DNA of 64,000 nucleotides from Fistulifera solaris (taxonomy: Eukaryota). The first letter of the stretch is position 1, and each line of letters starts with the position of its first letter. The position numbers and the translations under genes are program-made. Positions 9,129 through 15,871 of this stretch are shown here, piece after piece. The notes under the pieces are model-generated. The model saw nothing but the letters and a program-made list of their open reading frames with translations. It had not been told where the DNA came from and ran no database searches. The DNA lies in assembly GCA_030295235.1 (NCBI GenBank), contig AP026132.1, forward strand, positions 434,001 through 498,000, read 5' to 3'.

Positions 9129-12100
9129 ATGATATTCGAAAAAATGTCTGTCTCCGGTGAAAACGTAGTGGAAAACGATAAGTTGGCGTCAACTTTTGAA
9201 ACCGTTTCTCGCTGGGTCTCTGCGTCGAACGAAAACCCTAACGACGATGATACTTCGACCGACACCAAGTTGAAACTTTACGGACTTTTCAAGCGCGTCA
9301 AAAATGGACCCTGTGAAACGGAACCGCCGCCGGTGTACCGCGTCAAGGCTTACGCTAAGCACAAGGCATGGATGGAATGCTCGGACCTCTCGAAATTAGA
9401 GGCCATGCAAAATTATATTGATTTGGTGGCGCAGCAGACACAAAACACAGTTGGTCGAGAAGCGCAACGACTTGTCGATCAACTGCGAAGCGAAGAAAGC
9501 CGCGTTTCTCCACAAGTTGTGAATGACCAGAGTAAAGCAGCGTTGGCAAGCTCGGGAGCGAGCTCTGTGGAAAAGAAGACGTTTACCGAAACGTCGCGTG
9601 GCAATGTTGGCATCGTTCCGAGGGGAAGCTTGGATATTTCTTACAGCGACCTTTTGTATGCAGCCACGCACTGTCTTTTTTCGTCTCTCAATTTTGTTCC
9701 GAATCCTCGACACTACGAACAAGAAATCATTGATTTGTGGCAGCAAAGTTTGGGGAAGAATGTGGGTGTAATACCTGGATATTCTGCTAGGACTCTTCTC
9801 GATCTGTATTTGCGCACGAAACGATATCCTCTGGGATCGCAAATTATCATTTGTCCGCCTATTACGGTTCCCGGAATCGAAGAAGTCCTACGACATCATC
9901 AAATCGAATTCGTCCCTGTTGATATCCCAGAATACGACGGAGACAGTCCTTTCATATCGGTAGATACGAATGCACTGGAACACGCGATAACAGACAAAAC
10001 GGTCGCCATCATGGTCGTTCATATCTTTGGAATGCTAACGGCGAGCTCGGAAGATATGCAAAGGATACACACGATTTGTAAACGTCGCGGTGTGGAATTA
10101 ATGGAAGACTGTGCGGAGTGCTTTGGTGGGCTTTCTGAGACGGAAAACGATACCAGCACTTACCTCGGTAGTCCACATGCGGATCTTGTTCTTTTCTCTT
10201 TCGGTTTCATCAAAACGGCGACTGCCTTGGGCGGTGGCGTGGCTATCGTGCGAGACAAAGGAACGCATGAATCGATGAAGCGTCTGTTATCCGCTTGCTA
10301 CCTCGATCGCCAGTCCCAAGCAGTATTCTTCTCCAGGGTATGCAAAGCATTTCTGATCCGACTAGTGTCGGACCATCCCGTCATTTATGGACTTTTGGTC
10401 GTATTCATTCAAAACTTTGGCTTCGACTTCGATACTTTCGCTACAGCGCTTCTTCGTGGTTTCAAAAGCTCAACTGAAATGAGTGGTGACTACGTGACCC
10501 AGATAAGATTGATGCCGTGTTCTAGCTTGTTTGCTTTGTTGCTTCGCCGCATAAAGCAGAGAAACTGCACAGCTGAGCTCATTTCAGCGCGTCGACAGCA
10601 TTGCAGACGTTTGGTCGACGTTCTCCAGCATCAAGACGATGTGAGAGTCCCACGCTTTCTGGTTCCTTCCAACTTTCACGCATATTGGCTTTTCCCTGTA
10701 CTTGCTAACAATGTGCAAGATCTCTGTGTATATTTGACGAACCAGGGAATAGATGCCACGCAAGGTGCATCACAGCTCCGTTGCGTCGGGGCGTCCGAGA
10801 AATGTCCGCGCGCTTACAGTTTGATGAAACGAATTATGTATTTGCCCATGTCCCATGAGAGGCATTGGATATCAACACACTGGATCAACAATCTACCACA
10901 ATTCATAAACAATTTTGGGACCGGGGTAGGAATGAAGACCGTGAAAACAAAAAACTTTGGTTCTTCATTTCCTGTATGGGTTGCCTTTTCATTTATTTTC
11001 TTCATATACTATGGCTTCAGCACTTTGCTGGTAACAGTTTGCCCCATACTATTCTTTGTCATGGTGTGTGCCATTGCTACTGCGATCCTCGTGACGCTGT
11101 TTTTACGTTTGAGGATGGCCTCTTTTTACCTCGAAAGTTCCAACGCTTTCGCGAAATATTCATACTTGTTCGATTTGGGGTCTAAGCAACCTTTAAGAGT
11201 GAATAATACTCTGGATGATCTGAAATTTGTCGACGTCGTCGATGCAACTCTTCTGATTTCGATTCTGTCGACACGGAACGCTCCGTTTTATTAACAGGTG
11301 TTACCGGTTTTGTTGGTTCAACGATTCTCCGTGAACTGCTCTGCCGCCGAAGACAATACTCAATTAAACGAATCTATGTCATAGTTCGGCCGAAGGGGGA
11401 CCTTTCCGCCGAAGAGAGAATACATCGCTTGCTCGAAAACCCAATATTTTCTTGTGTGCCCACAGATGACCTATTTTCAGCCATTGTCGTCATCCCGGGT
11501 GACATCAGCCACGCAAACGCTGGTCTGGCCGCGGAAAGCCTTGAACAGCTAAAAAAAGAACGTTTCATTACGCATGTTTACAATTGTGCTGCAACTGTGA
11601 GCTTTACTCAATCATTGCAGGAAGCGGCTGAATCCAATATTACGTCGGCACTGAACGTCCAACGTCTAGCAGCTGAAATGCCATACCAAGAAGTCATTTT
11701 TGTTCATATCAGCACTGCTTTCGTTCATGGTGATCAAAAAGGAACAATAGATAACCCCTTGGGCAACAATCTATTTGACATGAAACCTTACGACCCTGTC
11801 GACGTGTACAAGTCGATGTGTGGAACCCAATACTATGCAACAAAAGCTATGAGTGATTTGGGTTTCTCCAACGCCTACCAGCTTAGCAAGTGCGTAGCTG
11901 AGCATCTCCTCCAGAATTGCTCTCTAAACACGATAATTATACGTCCAAGCATTGTCGGTCCTGCATTTTGTGAATCGTTGAAAGGATGGGCTGGATCCAG
12001 ACCCTCAACAATAACTGCTGCCCCGTGTCTCTATTTCTCGTATCAATGGAATATATGGTCCTTCGGTGACCATGCAGTGCCTTGCATCCCGGTCGATGTT

Positions 12101-15100: not shown

Positions 15101-15871
15101 GACGTACAAAGATTGGGGTCTTGTTGCCCAGCCAGTATTCGACTCCTGGACAACGATCACTTTCGATTAGGACGGGCTTTGCGAGCCAATCCGGTTTCCA
15201 TGCTACAATCTTTGCGACAAAGTGCTGGTGAATTTTACTTGAAACGACAAGACTTTGACTTCATGTCAACTGTATGTACAACCATCCTTTATGAAGGATC
15301 ACGCGAAGAAGTTGATTCACAAAAGCAAATGTTGAAGAAACTGATAAGTCGTCATGGTGGTTTTAGTTTGGGTGCAGCTGTGGGAGAACAAGGCTACAAT
15401 TTTACCTTTCTCATCGCTTATCTTCGCGATTTTGCGCTCACGTACAATTTTCTAGGAGACTCATTTGAGAGCTTTGTGCCATGGTCGAAAATTAGAACTG
15501 TGGTCGATTCTGTAAAAGATCGCATACGAAGGGAGCATGCAAAACGGTGTCTACCTGGATCTCCTTTCATTGGATGCCGTGTGACACAGTTGTACCACGA
15601 GGGTGCTTGTTTGTATTTTTACTTCTCGATGAGCAGTGCAAACGTTACAAACCCGAGTCGCGTCTTCATGGATATCGAGCATGCTGCCCGGGAAGAGATT
15701 CTACGACTTGGTGGCTCGCTCAGCCATCATCATGGGATCGGCAAAGCGCGTTCCGCTTTTCTCGATGACATTGACTCGCCAGAATGGATCAATGCAAAGC
15801 AAAGCGTCAAACGGGCTCTCGACCCAGACAACATATTTGGGGCACAAAATTGTGGCTTTTCTGCGCGTTAA
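9129..15871 (+). CDS. Putative single multidomain ether-lipid synthase: ACBP + DegT-type PLP aminotransferase + TM + fatty acyl-CoA reductase + DHAP/G3P acyltransferase + alkyl-DHAP synthase (~2,200 aa)
   Basis: Four same-strand ORFs joined by a -1 shift at 11219-11291, a phase-0 intron at 13358-13430 and a -1 shift at ~13795. All catalytic motifs are present (see sub-features). Confidence 0.75.
9190..9435 (+). other. Acyl-CoA-binding (ACBP) domain
   Basis: KLKLYGLFKRVKNGPC..PP......AKHKAW......S..EAM..YI.LV matches the ACBP consensus. Confidence 0.9.
9620..10865 (+). other. DegT/DnrJ/EryC1/StrS-type PLP-dependent aminotransferase domain
   Basis: AITDKTVAIMVVHIFG, LMEDCAE (PLP Asp), DLVLFSFGFIKTATALGGG (PLP Lys), AYWLFPV, LPM. 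Confidence 0.85.
11275..12650 (+). other. Fatty acyl-CoA reductase (NAD_binding_4 / male-sterility-type SDR) domain
   Basis: SVLLTGVTGFVGSTIL (TGxxGxxG, upstream of the ORF-track start), HVYNCAATVSF, FVHISTAFV, NAYQLSKCVAE (YxxxK), IIRPSIV, IPVD. Confidence 0.9.
12700..13800 (+). other. GNPAT/GPAT-like (PlsB/PlsC-family) acyltransferase domain, interrupted by intron 13358-13430
   Basis: ILAPTHRSFFDFLL (HxxxxD), GAVFVRR, FIEGTRSR, IIPITISYE; intron gtaagt...gctaac...cacag restores the frame. Confidence 0.88.
14110..15871 (+). other. AGPS: Alkyldihydroxyacetonephosphate synthase (FAD-linked) domain
   Basis: [89 protein letters not shown]. Confidence 0.95.

Follow-up and report, generated by a model that had tools for sequence, protein, structure and literature searches.

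The + strand of the window, by which we mean the whole stretch of 64,000 nucleotides that was analysed, carries four open reading frames (ORFs) in the region 9111-15871, at 9111-11294, 11219-13513, 13401-13856 and 13766-15871. An earlier reading of the bare sequence (the sequence-only reading) had joined them into a single gene whose product would have about 2,200 amino acids, with the order ACBP-aminotransferase-TM-FAR-DHAPAT-AGPS. The question is whether this is indeed one gene and, if so, what its product would do. Our analysis indicates that a raphid pennate diatom close to Fistulifera carries at 9144-15871 one intact nuclear gene, with a predicted protein of 2218 amino acids (Table 1). 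For the joint claim, namely an intact two-exon gene and a predicted membrane-anchored five-domain protein with the alkyl-DHAP mechanism proposed below, we estimate a probability of roughly 0.8.

Gene model and reading frame

In the uncorrected window the fusion gene reads with 61 stops. The frames break at the stops 11292-11294 and 13854-13856, and a TGA at 11216-11218 lies ahead of the FAR frame, in which there is no Met before the Rossmann motif, as had been pointed out. Short-read contigs from two runs belonging to different studies, X1 and X2 (the latter a wetland metagenome), were compared with the window. Both contain an extra T behind 11250 in the TT run (depth 15.6/15.6 in X1 and 11.3/11.3 in X2), an extra T behind 13793 in the TTTT run (14.3/14.3 and 12.1/12.1), and an extra A behind 9138 in the A6 run. 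The X1 contigs otherwise agree with the window letter for letter, 7 of the 8 X1 pieces listed having 0 other letters. When either T is restored, the upstream frame passes into the downstream frame; the first of them joins the FAR frame to the upstream ORF, and the second is the one-T repair of the last junction that had been proposed at about 13795. It is concluded that both frame breaks are one-base homopolymer deletions and are errors of the window's assembly.

X1 may be the sample behind the window's assembly; the independent supports are X2 and two database proteins, P0001 and P0002. X1 retains the intron and is probably DNA, and none of the contigs compared is an RNA contig spanning 11250 or 13793. 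P0001, from the same organism, runs across the 11250 junction without a break; it is 100% identical over the search query and 99.6% identical to the corrected protein over the shared 1407 amino acids, and is an unspliced reading at the intron. P0002, an orthologue of 2220 amino acids from F. solaris, aligns with the corrected protein from end to end, with 85.5% identity over 2220 aligned positions and 2 gap positions.

The 73-nt intron noticed in the sequence-only reading is skipped in one X3 contig, which is spliced at 13357/13431 (depth 2.97, with 32 letters on the short side). If it were retained, the frame would shift and end at the stop 13513, and the product would be 1456 aa long and lack AGPS. 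The start codon had been placed at 9129, and this has to be revised. The extra A behind 9138 puts ATG 9129 out of frame, where it opens merely a 10-codon upstream ORF, and the start is therefore ATG 9144, which is also the start of P0001 and P0002. The corrected coding sequence has 6657 nt and a single stop, which is terminal.

Table 1. Features of the fusion gene and its predicted protein (window coordinates)
Feature	Position	Strand	Remarks
Fusion gene	9144-15871	+	2 exons, one 73-nt intron
5' leader A-run	9139-9144	+	start codon at its end; window short of one A (assembly error)
Exon 1	9144-13357	+	opens at ATG 9144; one T to restore in TT run 11251-11252
ACBP (acyl-CoA-binding) domain	9195-9428	+	PF00887, 67.4 bits vs cut-off 28.3
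DegT/DnrJ/EryC1/StrS-type PLP aminotransferase	9615-10880 (approximate limits); Pfam core 9840-10298	+	
Hydrophobic block, ~50 aa (aa 611-661)	10974-11126	+	Kyte-Doolittle, 19-aa window, maximum 2.86
Deletion site	11251-11252	+	TT should be TTT; false break between ORF 1 and ORF 2
Fatty acyl-CoA reductase (FAR; NAD_binding_4)	11291-12112	+	TGxTGxxG, YxxxK
PlsC/GNPAT-type acyltransferase (AT)	12887-13261	+	HRSxxD, xEGxRSR
Intron, 73 nt	13358-13430	+	GTAAGT...CAG; absent from spliced X3 contig
Exon 2	13431-15871	+	stop codon 15869-15871; one T to restore in T-run 13794-13797
Linker, ~215 aa	13431-14077	+	no Pfam/NCBIfam family
Deletion site	13794-13797	+	TTTT should be TTTTT
AGPS domain	14078-15850	+	FAD_binding_4 14474-14896, FAD-oxidase_C 15044-15841

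Domains of the predicted protein and a proposed mechanism

The five domains that had been recognised by eye, in tandem on the + strand, were all found by Pfam. ORF 9111-11294 contains the ACBP domain (E 1e-18, profile positions 4-76 of 76) and the DegT_DnrJ_EryC1 domain (E 6e-21, 75.4 bits against a gathering threshold of 19.8), where the alignment covers the PLP-binding core alone, positions 65-202 of 360. ORF 11219-13513 contains FAR (PF07993, E 8e-46) and the acyltransferase (PF01553, E 1e-18, with GNPAT/GPAT-type blocks present), in that order and within one uninterrupted ORF, 11219-13357. FAD_binding_4 (E 1e-34) and FAD-oxidase_C (E 2e-32) are in ORF 13766-15871, while the Pfam search of ORF 13401-13856 gave no match. 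The motifs TGxxGxxG, YxxxK, HRSFFD, FIEGTRSR and SHHHG, on which the sequence-only reading had relied, are all present. The linker is the least conserved long stretch, with 29% mean identity; the short TM segment is lower, at 23%.

The C-terminal domain is closest to AGPS of known structure. It matches guinea-pig AGPS (4bby) with E 5e-136 over query positions 105-695 and the Dictyostelium enzyme (2uuu) with E 2e-78, while the remaining FAD oxidases match with E 1e-22 or weaker. In the 4bby alignment, chain residues R419, Y578 and H615-617 lie opposite identical residues in the diatom domain; we take these to be the Arg, the Tyr and the HHH loop of the AGPS active site. The hydrophobic block lies between the aminotransferase and FAR and is divided by a proline, and is probably a two-helix membrane hairpin. 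No signal peptide was found in the predicted fusion protein. Its C-terminus is SAR, and a PTS1-type ending, [SAC][KRH][LM], was found in 0 of 42 full-length homologues.

Based on these domains, a mechanism can be proposed. The N-terminal ACBP domain would bind long-chain acyl-CoA at the membrane surface, and the FAR domain would reduce it to fatty alcohol using NADPH. The GNPAT-type acyltransferase would add a second acyl group to DHAP, forming 1-acyl-DHAP, and the C-terminal AGPS flavoenzyme would then put the fatty alcohol in the place of the acyl group to yield 1-O-alkyl-DHAP. The two-helix hairpin would hold every domain on one face of the membrane, and this face is probably cytosolic because there is neither a signal peptide nor a PTS1. 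The result would be a FARAT-type fusion plus AGPS, with the three committed steps on one polypeptide. From the known activities of these families, the function is likely to be membrane-anchored synthesis of 1-O-alkyl-DHAP; we infer the enzymatic activities, the channelling, the topology, the localisation and the ether-lipid output alike. Alkyl-DHAP reductase, the next enzyme of the pathway, lies outside the fusion. A literature search brought up no diatom in which alkyl ether glycerolipids are reported.

Conservation and relation to known systems

A set of 140 long homologues was collected, of which the best 120 all have E<1e-145. Among these 120 the domains are colinear throughout, with ACBP-DegT-FAR-AT-AGPS in 42, DegT-FAR-AT-AGPS in 14, ACBP-DegT-FAR-AT in 46, DegT-FAR-AT in 13 and FAR-AT-AGPS in 5, so that DegT-FAR-AT-AGPS is found in 56/120. 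The ACBP-DegT part is missing from 5 of the 120. The rows that carry an organism name (n=13) are all diatoms, both centric and pennate. Full-length models are present in the databases for Fistulifera, Nitzschia, Seminavis, Cyclotella, Discostella, Thalassiosira oceanica and others, and are automatically named AGPS. In 43 aligned sequences the catalytic positions are invariant: the PLP Lys, the ED Asp, the three FAR glycines and YxxxK, and HRSxxD are each conserved in 43/43, and the AGPS HHH in all 37 sequences that contain the region, the other 6 being truncated. Metagenomes provided 36 diatom-like loci. The aminotransferase is present in 33 of them and the other 3 start at a contig edge. In every one of the 31 loci that extend past the acyltransferase, the linker or AGPS follows downstream on the same strand, in one continuous frame in 21, with a break exactly at the window's intron site in 8, and with a break elsewhere in 2.

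These results have to be weighed against the possibility that the frameshifts are real, and that the locus is a pseudogene or a row of three to four neighbouring genes (ACBP-aminotransferase; FAR-acyltransferase; AGPS). The stops and the missing ATG ahead of the FAR motif, which would favour this, belong to the window as given; the frame is intact again in X1 and X2, which come from different studies, and in P0001, the three indels all fall in homopolymer runs, and the corrected frame is open over 2218 codons. AGPS is also missing from 59 of the 120 best homologues. However, the alignment ends at aa 1400-1424 in 47 of these 59, which is the window's intron site, so that these models, like P0001, probably come from ORF calling without splicing. 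Older diatom models that show a stand-alone AGPS, such as the 554-aa Phaeodactylum protein in Dataset file 5 of PMC13012113, would also point to separate genes, but the Phaeodactylum model as given there starts partway through the N-terminal region of AGPS, a sign that it may be truncated. Old models of this kind, with AGPS short and standing alone, probably represent truncated parts of the fusion gene. In addition, the acyltransferase-AGPS junction lies within the unbroken frame of the 21 metagenome loci (in 19 of them from DegT or the contig start), and the 8 further loci break solely at the shared intron site. Separate genes or a pseudogene can be regarded as largely refuted and are highly improbable. 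Orthologues are not consistently separate genes; a colinear fusion is found in many diatoms, and the predicted fusion architecture is a conserved feature of diatom genomes.

The sequence-only reading knew of no described protein with this architecture. For the literature this stands, since our search found no published description of the diatom fusion; for the databases it does not, since they contain such proteins under the automatic name AGPS. The architecture is thus known to sequence databases and appears to be undescribed in the literature searched.

The two-domain relatives that come nearest to the FAR-AT part are FAR+AT proteins some 900 amino acids long, at 27-33% identity. The one that carries an organism name is from Archangium sp., a myxobacterium. 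FARAT is a bifunctional FAR-GNPAT protein described from Tetrahymena thermophila (1,140 aa) and Dictyostelium (PMC13012113, PMC7375469), with a myxobacterial counterpart in MXAN_1675 (PMC13012113). Like the diatom protein, it has FAR followed by the acyltransferase on one polypeptide, with the same catalytic motifs, but the diatom protein is about twice as long, adding a C-terminal AGPS and an N-terminal ACBP, aminotransferase and hairpin. In a 2026 survey, Ciliophora are given as the sole Diaphoretickes group with FARAT, and the word 'diatom' has 0 occurrences in its main text (PMC13012113). According to the legend of Fig. 1 of the same paper, the Myxococcus xanthus operon MXAN_1676-1675-1674 encodes AGPS, a FAR-AT fusion and an NAD-dependent epimerase/dehydratase (SDR). 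This and similar bacterial operons hold FAR, DHAP acyltransferase and AGPS as one genetic unit, as the diatom gene does, but as separate proteins and with an SDR as third gene, whereas the diatom gene encodes one polypeptide with a PLP aminotransferase and ACBP and no SDR.

The animal peroxisomal AGPS is a close homologue of the diatom AGPS domain, as the guinea-pig match indicates. Animal GNPAT and AGPS are imported into peroxisomes by PTS1 and PTS2. Animal FAR1, GNPAT and AGPS are three separate proteins, in contrast to the single diatom fusion, which lacks a PTS1 and is probably anchored by its hairpin.

The aminotransferase domain and what it may mean

Of all parts of the protein, the aminotransferase is the most interesting and the least well explained; no role had been assigned to it, and it has no place in the textbook ether-lipid pathway. 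A moderately hydrophobic stretch (aa 403-422) lies inside its region. The PLP Lys is K357, within SFGxIK, and the Asp is D322, within ED(C/A)A. The subfamily profile matched 58 sequences in the PDB, nearly all of them DegT-family aminotransferases or dehydratases by molecule name, the best being 7n63, 3bn1 and 2c7t (E 1e-30 to 1e-27). The NCBIfam equivalogs gave 7 matches, all far below their cut-offs (the best was PseC, 48 bits against 423.5), so that a place in a characterised group with a nucleotide-sugar substrate, such as PseC, ArnB, WecE or DesI, is not supported. The domain shares the fold-type I PLP core and the Lys and Asp motifs with the characterised DegT sugar aminotransferases (PseC, ArnB, perosamine synthase, scyllo-inosose aminotransferases), but by sequence comparison it is a distinct DegT subfamily, with aligned members of about 365-510 amino acids. 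Free-standing members occur in bivalves, a sea anemone, cyanobacteria, Planctomycetota and others, and the closest eukaryotic relatives (bivalves and one sea anemone) are stand-alone proteins. We know of no characterised member of this subfamily.

It could be argued that the fusion is real but that the aminotransferase does not work here, serving as a structural, regulatory or dimerisation module in a protein whose output is alkyl-DHAP for the usual ether lipids. An aminotransferase is not required in the textbook pathway, no equivalog cut-off is met, and the Pfam alignment is confined to the PLP-binding core. Nevertheless, the entire domain can be aligned globally with free-standing enzymes of its subfamily from bacteria and animals. 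Although the domain is only about 36% identical overall among the 43 sequences, all 43 retain the Schiff-base Lys and the Asp, together with the flanking glycine-rich motif, and the Lys and Asp are also invariant across the aligned diatom, animal and bacterial members. A non-working module is therefore considered very doubtful, and the aminotransferase is an integral part of the fusion and probably an active enzyme.

If active, it may extend the proposed mechanism rather than compete with it. The DegT-type domain might transaminate the C2 ketone of 1-O-alkyl-DHAP (or of acyl-DHAP or DHAP), in place of an SDR ketoreductase. The product might be 1-O-alkyl-2-amino-2-deoxyglycerol-3-phosphate (O-alkyl serinol phosphate), a precursor of N-containing, ceramide-like ether lipids. 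DegT enzymes are known to aminate ketones of phosphorylated substrates. The invariance of the PLP Lys and Asp, the presence of the domain in all metagenome loci except the 3 cut by contig ends, and the moderately hydrophobic stretch within it are consistent with this idea, as is the presence of an aminotransferase and no reductase where the M. xanthus operon has an SDR (PMC13012113, Fig. 1 legend). There is also chemical precedent, with no homology claimed, in the PLP-dependent amination of DHAP to serinol phosphate described for Cj1437 of Campylobacter jejuni (PMC11800397) and RtxA's N-terminal domain in Bradyrhizobium elkanii (PMC3222319), where the substrate is free DHAP and the pathways are those of capsule and rhizobitoxine.

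In 6 of 80 bacterial loci, from four phyla by the placement of the named genera, this DegT subfamily stands next to a DprE1-type flavoenzyme or is fused with it. DprE1 oxidises an alcohol to a ketone, which would give a flavoenzyme-then-aminotransferase logic. However, FAR, AT, AGPS and ACBP lie within about 8 kb in 0 of these 80 loci, and with the query used, the 5 bacterial genomes that contain the DegT-oxidase pair yielded no true AGPS (best E 4e-17, FAD domain only). The nearest eukaryotic relatives are stand-alone and uncharacterised, and our literature search found no diatom lipid of the O-alkyl serinol type, nor do we know of one. We therefore offer only tentatively, as an improbable suggestion, that AGPS hands 1-O-alkyl-DHAP straight to the fused aminotransferase for amination at C2, and that O-alkyl serinol phosphate leads on to amide-linked, sphingolipid-like ether lipids, an unrecognised lipid class of diatoms. 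If this were true, the DegT subfamily would mark ketone-to-amine lipid chemistry elsewhere, in its free-standing form in bivalves and cnidarians and in DprE1-type-oxidase fusions in Acidobacteriota.

A large part of ocean photosynthesis is due to diatoms, which are also organisms of lipid biotechnology, and ether lipids are outside their accepted lipid map. On the genomic evidence, diatoms very probably make 1-O-alkyl-DHAP, from a conserved gene joining FAR, DHAP acyltransferase and AGPS. This corrects the picture in PMC13012113 of FARAT confined to ciliates within Diaphoretickes and of AGPS, GNPAT and FAR patchy in SAR, and it bears on the single transfer of the pathway from myxobacteria proposed there. 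The fusion is a natural test case for substrate channelling, the pathway being split across the peroxisomal membrane in animals, and its invariant aminotransferase domain suggests a new branch of lipid chemistry that can be tested.

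Gene structure and reading frames

The stop-to-stop listing gave four long ORFs in alternating frames between 9111 and 15871. Their positions and Pfam domains are listed in the Table, where DegT is a PLP aminotransferase domain, FAR is fatty acyl-CoA reductase and AT is a PlsC/GNPAT-type acyltransferase. ORF 4 also matched the solved guinea-pig AGPS (E 5e-136, residues 105-695), and other FAD oxidases were far weaker. The domain list and motifs originally read from the sequence alone are therefore correct.

Table. ORFs of the fusion gene in the window, and bacterial loci (L-numbers, positions within the locus) in which the subfamily aminotransferase is fused to or directly adjoins a flavoenzyme. 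The phyla of these loci, four in all, follow from the genus names.
Feature	Positions	Strand	Domain content	Organism	Phylum
ORF 1	9111-11294	+	ACBP, DegT_DnrJ_EryC1 aminotransferase	Fistulifera solaris
ORF 2	11219-13513	+	NAD_binding_4 (FAR), PlsC-type acyltransferase	Fistulifera solaris
ORF 3	13401-13856	+	no Pfam match	Fistulifera solaris
ORF 4	13766-15871	+	FAD_binding_4, FAD-oxidase_C	Fistulifera solaris
L048	7944-10592		DegT + DprE1/lactone-oxidase-type FAD enzyme fusion, ~880 aa		Acidobacteriota
L055	7947-10577		DegT + DprE1/lactone-oxidase-type FAD enzyme fusion, ~880 aa		Acidobacteriota
L057	about 6638-9220		DegT + DprE1/lactone-oxidase-type FAD enzyme fusion, ~880 aa		Acidobacteriota
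L030			DegT adjoins DprE1-type flavoenzyme gene	Planctomicrobium	Planctomycetota
L036			DegT adjoins DprE1-type flavoenzyme gene	Nitrospirales	Nitrospirota
L077			DegT adjoins DprE1-type flavoenzyme gene	Desertivirga	Bacteroidota

To test the frame breaks, contigs from four sequencing runs were placed on 9000-16000: X1 (labelled with one organism), X2 (a wetland metagenome from a different study), X3 (from the same study as X1) and X4. X3 and X4 are RNA by guess only, and cover a few short parts. Contigs of both X1 and X2 carry three insertions, all at full depth: an extra T behind 11250 (a TT run in the window, 11251-11252), an extra T behind 13793 (a TTTT run, 13794-13797) and an extra A behind 9138 (an A-run, 9139-9144). 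The X1 contigs with these insertions are otherwise identical to the window. Each added T shifts the reading from the upstream frame (frame 0) to the downstream frame (frame 2), and the frame breaks at both junctions are not real. The sequence-only reading had repaired the last junction by adding one T to the T-run, which is the change found in X1 and X2 behind 13793. For the first junction, near 11250, a short intron was also considered; the 76-nt overlap contains no canonical GT..AG pair that would spare the Rossmann motif, and the reads have a plain extra T. None of the putative RNA pieces listed crosses 11250 or 13793.

One X3 contig skips 13358-13430 (73 nt, GTAAGT...CAG). If X3 is RNA as guessed, this confirms the 73-bp intron that had been proposed there, and the gene is transcribed and spliced. 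With the two Ts added and the intron removed, the coding sequence 9144-15871 is 6657 nt long, has one terminal stop and encodes 2218 aa, while the same sequence read uncorrected has 61 stops. Located immediately ahead of the start codon, the extra A puts ATG 9129 out of frame, so the start is ATG 9144. The claim that the locus first delimited as 9129..15871 is a single joined gene is supported, with its start corrected to 9144. With the A restored, ATG 9129 opens a 10-codon uORF (9129-9161) that overlaps the start codon at 9144, and which may be a small regulatory element or meaningless.

P0001 is a protein of the same organism, taken from a cleaner assembly. It matches the search query with 100% identity, starts at ATG 9144 and reads through the first junction without a break. 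It ends at 13513 because its model left the intron unspliced. Retention of the intron introduces no stop within it, and shifts the frame to end at 13513, which would give a 1456-aa four-domain protein without AGPS. The intron is located exactly at a domain boundary, at a position common to 8 of 31 metagenome loci, and a regulated short AGPS-less isoform produced by intron retention is conceivable.

A second group of contigs in X1 and X2 has 90-95% identity to the window (11599-12040, 14533-14541, 15245). Record 4 of X1 in this group has 22 differences in 397 nt, and an in-frame insertion of GGA behind 15245 is found in one X1 contig. The group has the appearance of an allele or homeologue of the fusion gene that has diverged but stays in frame.

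Conservation of the fusion and its relation to known fusions

When longer relatives of the FAR-acyltransferase ORF were searched for, 140 proteins were obtained, the best 120 of them all with E<1e-145. Thirteen entries carry an organism name, and all are diatoms, both pennate (Fistulifera, two Nitzschia, Seminavis, Amphora, Pseudo-nitzschia and Cylindrotheca) and centric (Cyclotella, Discostella, Thalassiosira oceanica, Skeletonema and two MMETSP entries). The F. solaris protein, of 2220 aa and annotated as alkyldihydroxyacetonephosphate synthase, aligns with the corrected window protein over the full length of both, with 85.5% identity and 2 gap positions.

Domain content was scored by blastp with the window domain segments for the best 120 of the 140 relatives. 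DegT-FAR-AT-AGPS was found in 56 of these 120 (42 of them with a detectable ACBP too), (ACBP-)DegT-FAR-AT without AGPS in 59, and FAR-AT-AGPS alone in 5. The domain order is colinear in all 120. In 47 of the 59 AGPS-less entries, similarity ends at residues 1400-1424, which corresponds to the intron site of the window, and is followed by a short unrelated tail, as in P0001. Judged from where similarity ends, the AGPS-less entries are probably mostly artefacts.

In a scan of metagenome DNA, 46 loci were found, and 36 of them, with 31-45% identity, are diatom-like. Thirty-one of the 36 extend past the acyltransferase, and in every one of these the linker/AGPS follows on the same strand. The acyltransferase-AGPS junction lies in one uninterrupted frame in 21 of the 31; in 8 the frame changes exactly at the intron position of the window, with 52-85 nt between the aligned pieces; and in 2 the change is at another position. 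Of the 36 loci, 33 have the aminotransferase, and the remaining three begin at a contig edge. The loci include near-duplicates from sister samples (L095/L096, L110/L111/L112 and L105/L106), which means that the locus count somewhat exceeds the number of independent lineages. Consistently separate orthologous genes, which had been named as speaking against a fusion, are thus not what is observed. These comparisons indicate a conserved, pan-diatom, five-domain gene. Taking together the repaired frames, the spliced contig, the end-to-end match to the F. solaris protein and the colinear diatom orthologues, the original single-gene interpretation is supported, and we put the probability that the locus is one gene with one ORF at about 95%.

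Two metagenome loci were also noted. In L123 (164-5709), FAR-AT-linker-AGPS are colinear over seven frame segments. The contig ends within the N-terminal part, and the locus probably represents an orthologue rich in introns from a different eukaryotic lineage. In L126 (5350-7588), an AGPS-like gene on the opposite strand directly adjoins a FAR-like gene, with 30-35% identity to the diatom domains, and this looks like a bacterial ether-lipid cluster.

Among two-domain proteins, the closest to the FAR-AT part are FAR+AT proteins of ~900 aa (27-33% identity), and the only one with an organism name is from Archangium sp., a myxobacterium. Fusions of FAR with GNPAT (FARAT) have been described in Tetrahymena, Dictyostelium, Discoba and myxobacteria (PMC13012113). 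The diatom fusion belongs with these FARAT-type ether-lipid fusions, and is the FARAT idea carried one step further. In the same 2026 survey, AGPS, GNPAT and FAR are patchy in SAR, FARAT within Diaphoretickes is given for Ciliophora only, and the main text makes no mention of diatoms; its AGPS dataset has short stand-alone models for Phaeodactylum, Fragilariopsis and Pseudo-nitzschia, and across 12 of its 15 supplementary files Fistulifera and Thalassiosira occur in the desaturase files only (PMC13012113). The Phaeodactylum tricornutum AGPS model in supplementary file 5 has 554 aa and begins midway through the AGPS N-terminal region (PMC13012113). The window protein continues upstream of this point, and the 554-aa model probably represents this fusion gene in truncated form. 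In a study of cryptophyte peroxisomes, AGPS and FAR are treated as separate proteins and a diatom fusion is not mentioned. No description of the five-domain architecture was found in the literature covered, which mostly excludes subscription journals. Public databases have contained full-length fusion proteins for years, named automatically as AGPS, and the fusion is present in sequence databases yet apparently undescribed in the literature.

Catalytic motifs and the aminotransferase domain

The corrected window protein was aligned with 42 full-length homologues (n=43). Despite per-domain identities to the window protein of just 36-52% overall, every catalytic motif is fixed. The SFGxIK lysine and the ED aspartate of the aminotransferase, the three glycines of TGxTGxxG and the YxxxK of FAR, and the acyltransferase HRSxxD are each found in 43/43; the acyltransferase xEGxRSR is also fixed, and the AGPS HHH loop is present in 37/37 of the sequences reaching that far. 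The window protein has identical residues at the catalytic guinea-pig AGPS positions R419, Y578 and H615-617. Hydropathy scanning identified no N-terminal hydrophobic signal and a single hydrophobic block of ~50 residues separating the aminotransferase from FAR (aa 611-661). A proline divides the block, whose length is that of a putative two-helix hairpin. A PTS1 is absent from the window protein and from all 42 full-length homologues.

The best equivalog match of the DegT domain scores 48 bits against a cut-off of 423 bits, and the domain is far below every characterised sugar-aminotransferase equivalog. It aligns globally with a distinct subfamily, whose free-standing members come from bivalves (Pecten, Mizuhopecten, Mytilus, Mactra, Mercenaria), the anemone Exaiptasia and many bacteria. 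A search of the ESM Atlas with this domain gave only generic bacterial DegT clusters. The closest eukaryotic relatives outside the fusion (P0124-P0132) are uncharacterised stand-alone bivalve or Exaiptasia proteins with 27-31% identity.

A scan of species-representative genomes for the subfamily gave 443 confirmed stretches, of which 80 were kept as loci. No tblastn match to the FAR, AT, AGPS or ACBP segments was found across these 80 bacterial loci at E<=1e-4. When 58 proteins from 28 of these loci (56 neighbouring ORFs and 2 DegT fusion ORFs) were scanned with Pfam, the genes were mostly unrelated; in L060 a PlsC acyltransferase lies directly upstream of the subfamily gene. In 6 of the 80, the aminotransferase is fused to or directly adjoins a flavoenzyme of the DprE1/lactone-oxidase type (Table). 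With the window AGPS as the only query, no true AGPS was found in 5 genomes that have this pair. The pair looks like an uncharacterised alcohol-to-ketone-to-amine module.

Proposed pathway

Every activity of the fusion protein, and any channelling, is what we infer from its sequence, using the established chemistry of the families. The ACBP domain would bind acyl-CoA, and the FAR domain would reduce one acyl-CoA to a fatty alcohol. DHAP would be acylated by the GNPAT-type acyltransferase domain, and the AGPS domain would exchange the acyl group for the alcohol to give 1-O-alkyl-DHAP, with all steps on one membrane face. It is likely that the fusion protein makes alkyl-DHAP.

The role of the aminotransferase is more speculative. 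DprE1 oxidises a secondary alcohol to a ketone, and the recurring DegT-flavoenzyme pair therefore suggests that the flavoenzyme could make a ketone that the aminotransferase then aminates. In the diatom fusion AGPS is the flavoenzyme, and the product it makes carries a ketone at C2. The bacterial AGPS operon has an SDR-family gene at the corresponding position, where diatoms have the aminotransferase (PMC13012113). PLP-dependent amination of DHAP to serinol phosphate is reported for Cj1437 (PMC11800397) and for RtxA (PMC3222319). Because of the pairing logic, the C2 ketone, the replacement of the SDR and these two precedents, we retain as an improbable reading that alkyl-DHAP would be aminated to O-alkyl serinol phosphate, from which amino ether lipids would be made. 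The aminotransferase domain could point to new lipid chemistry.
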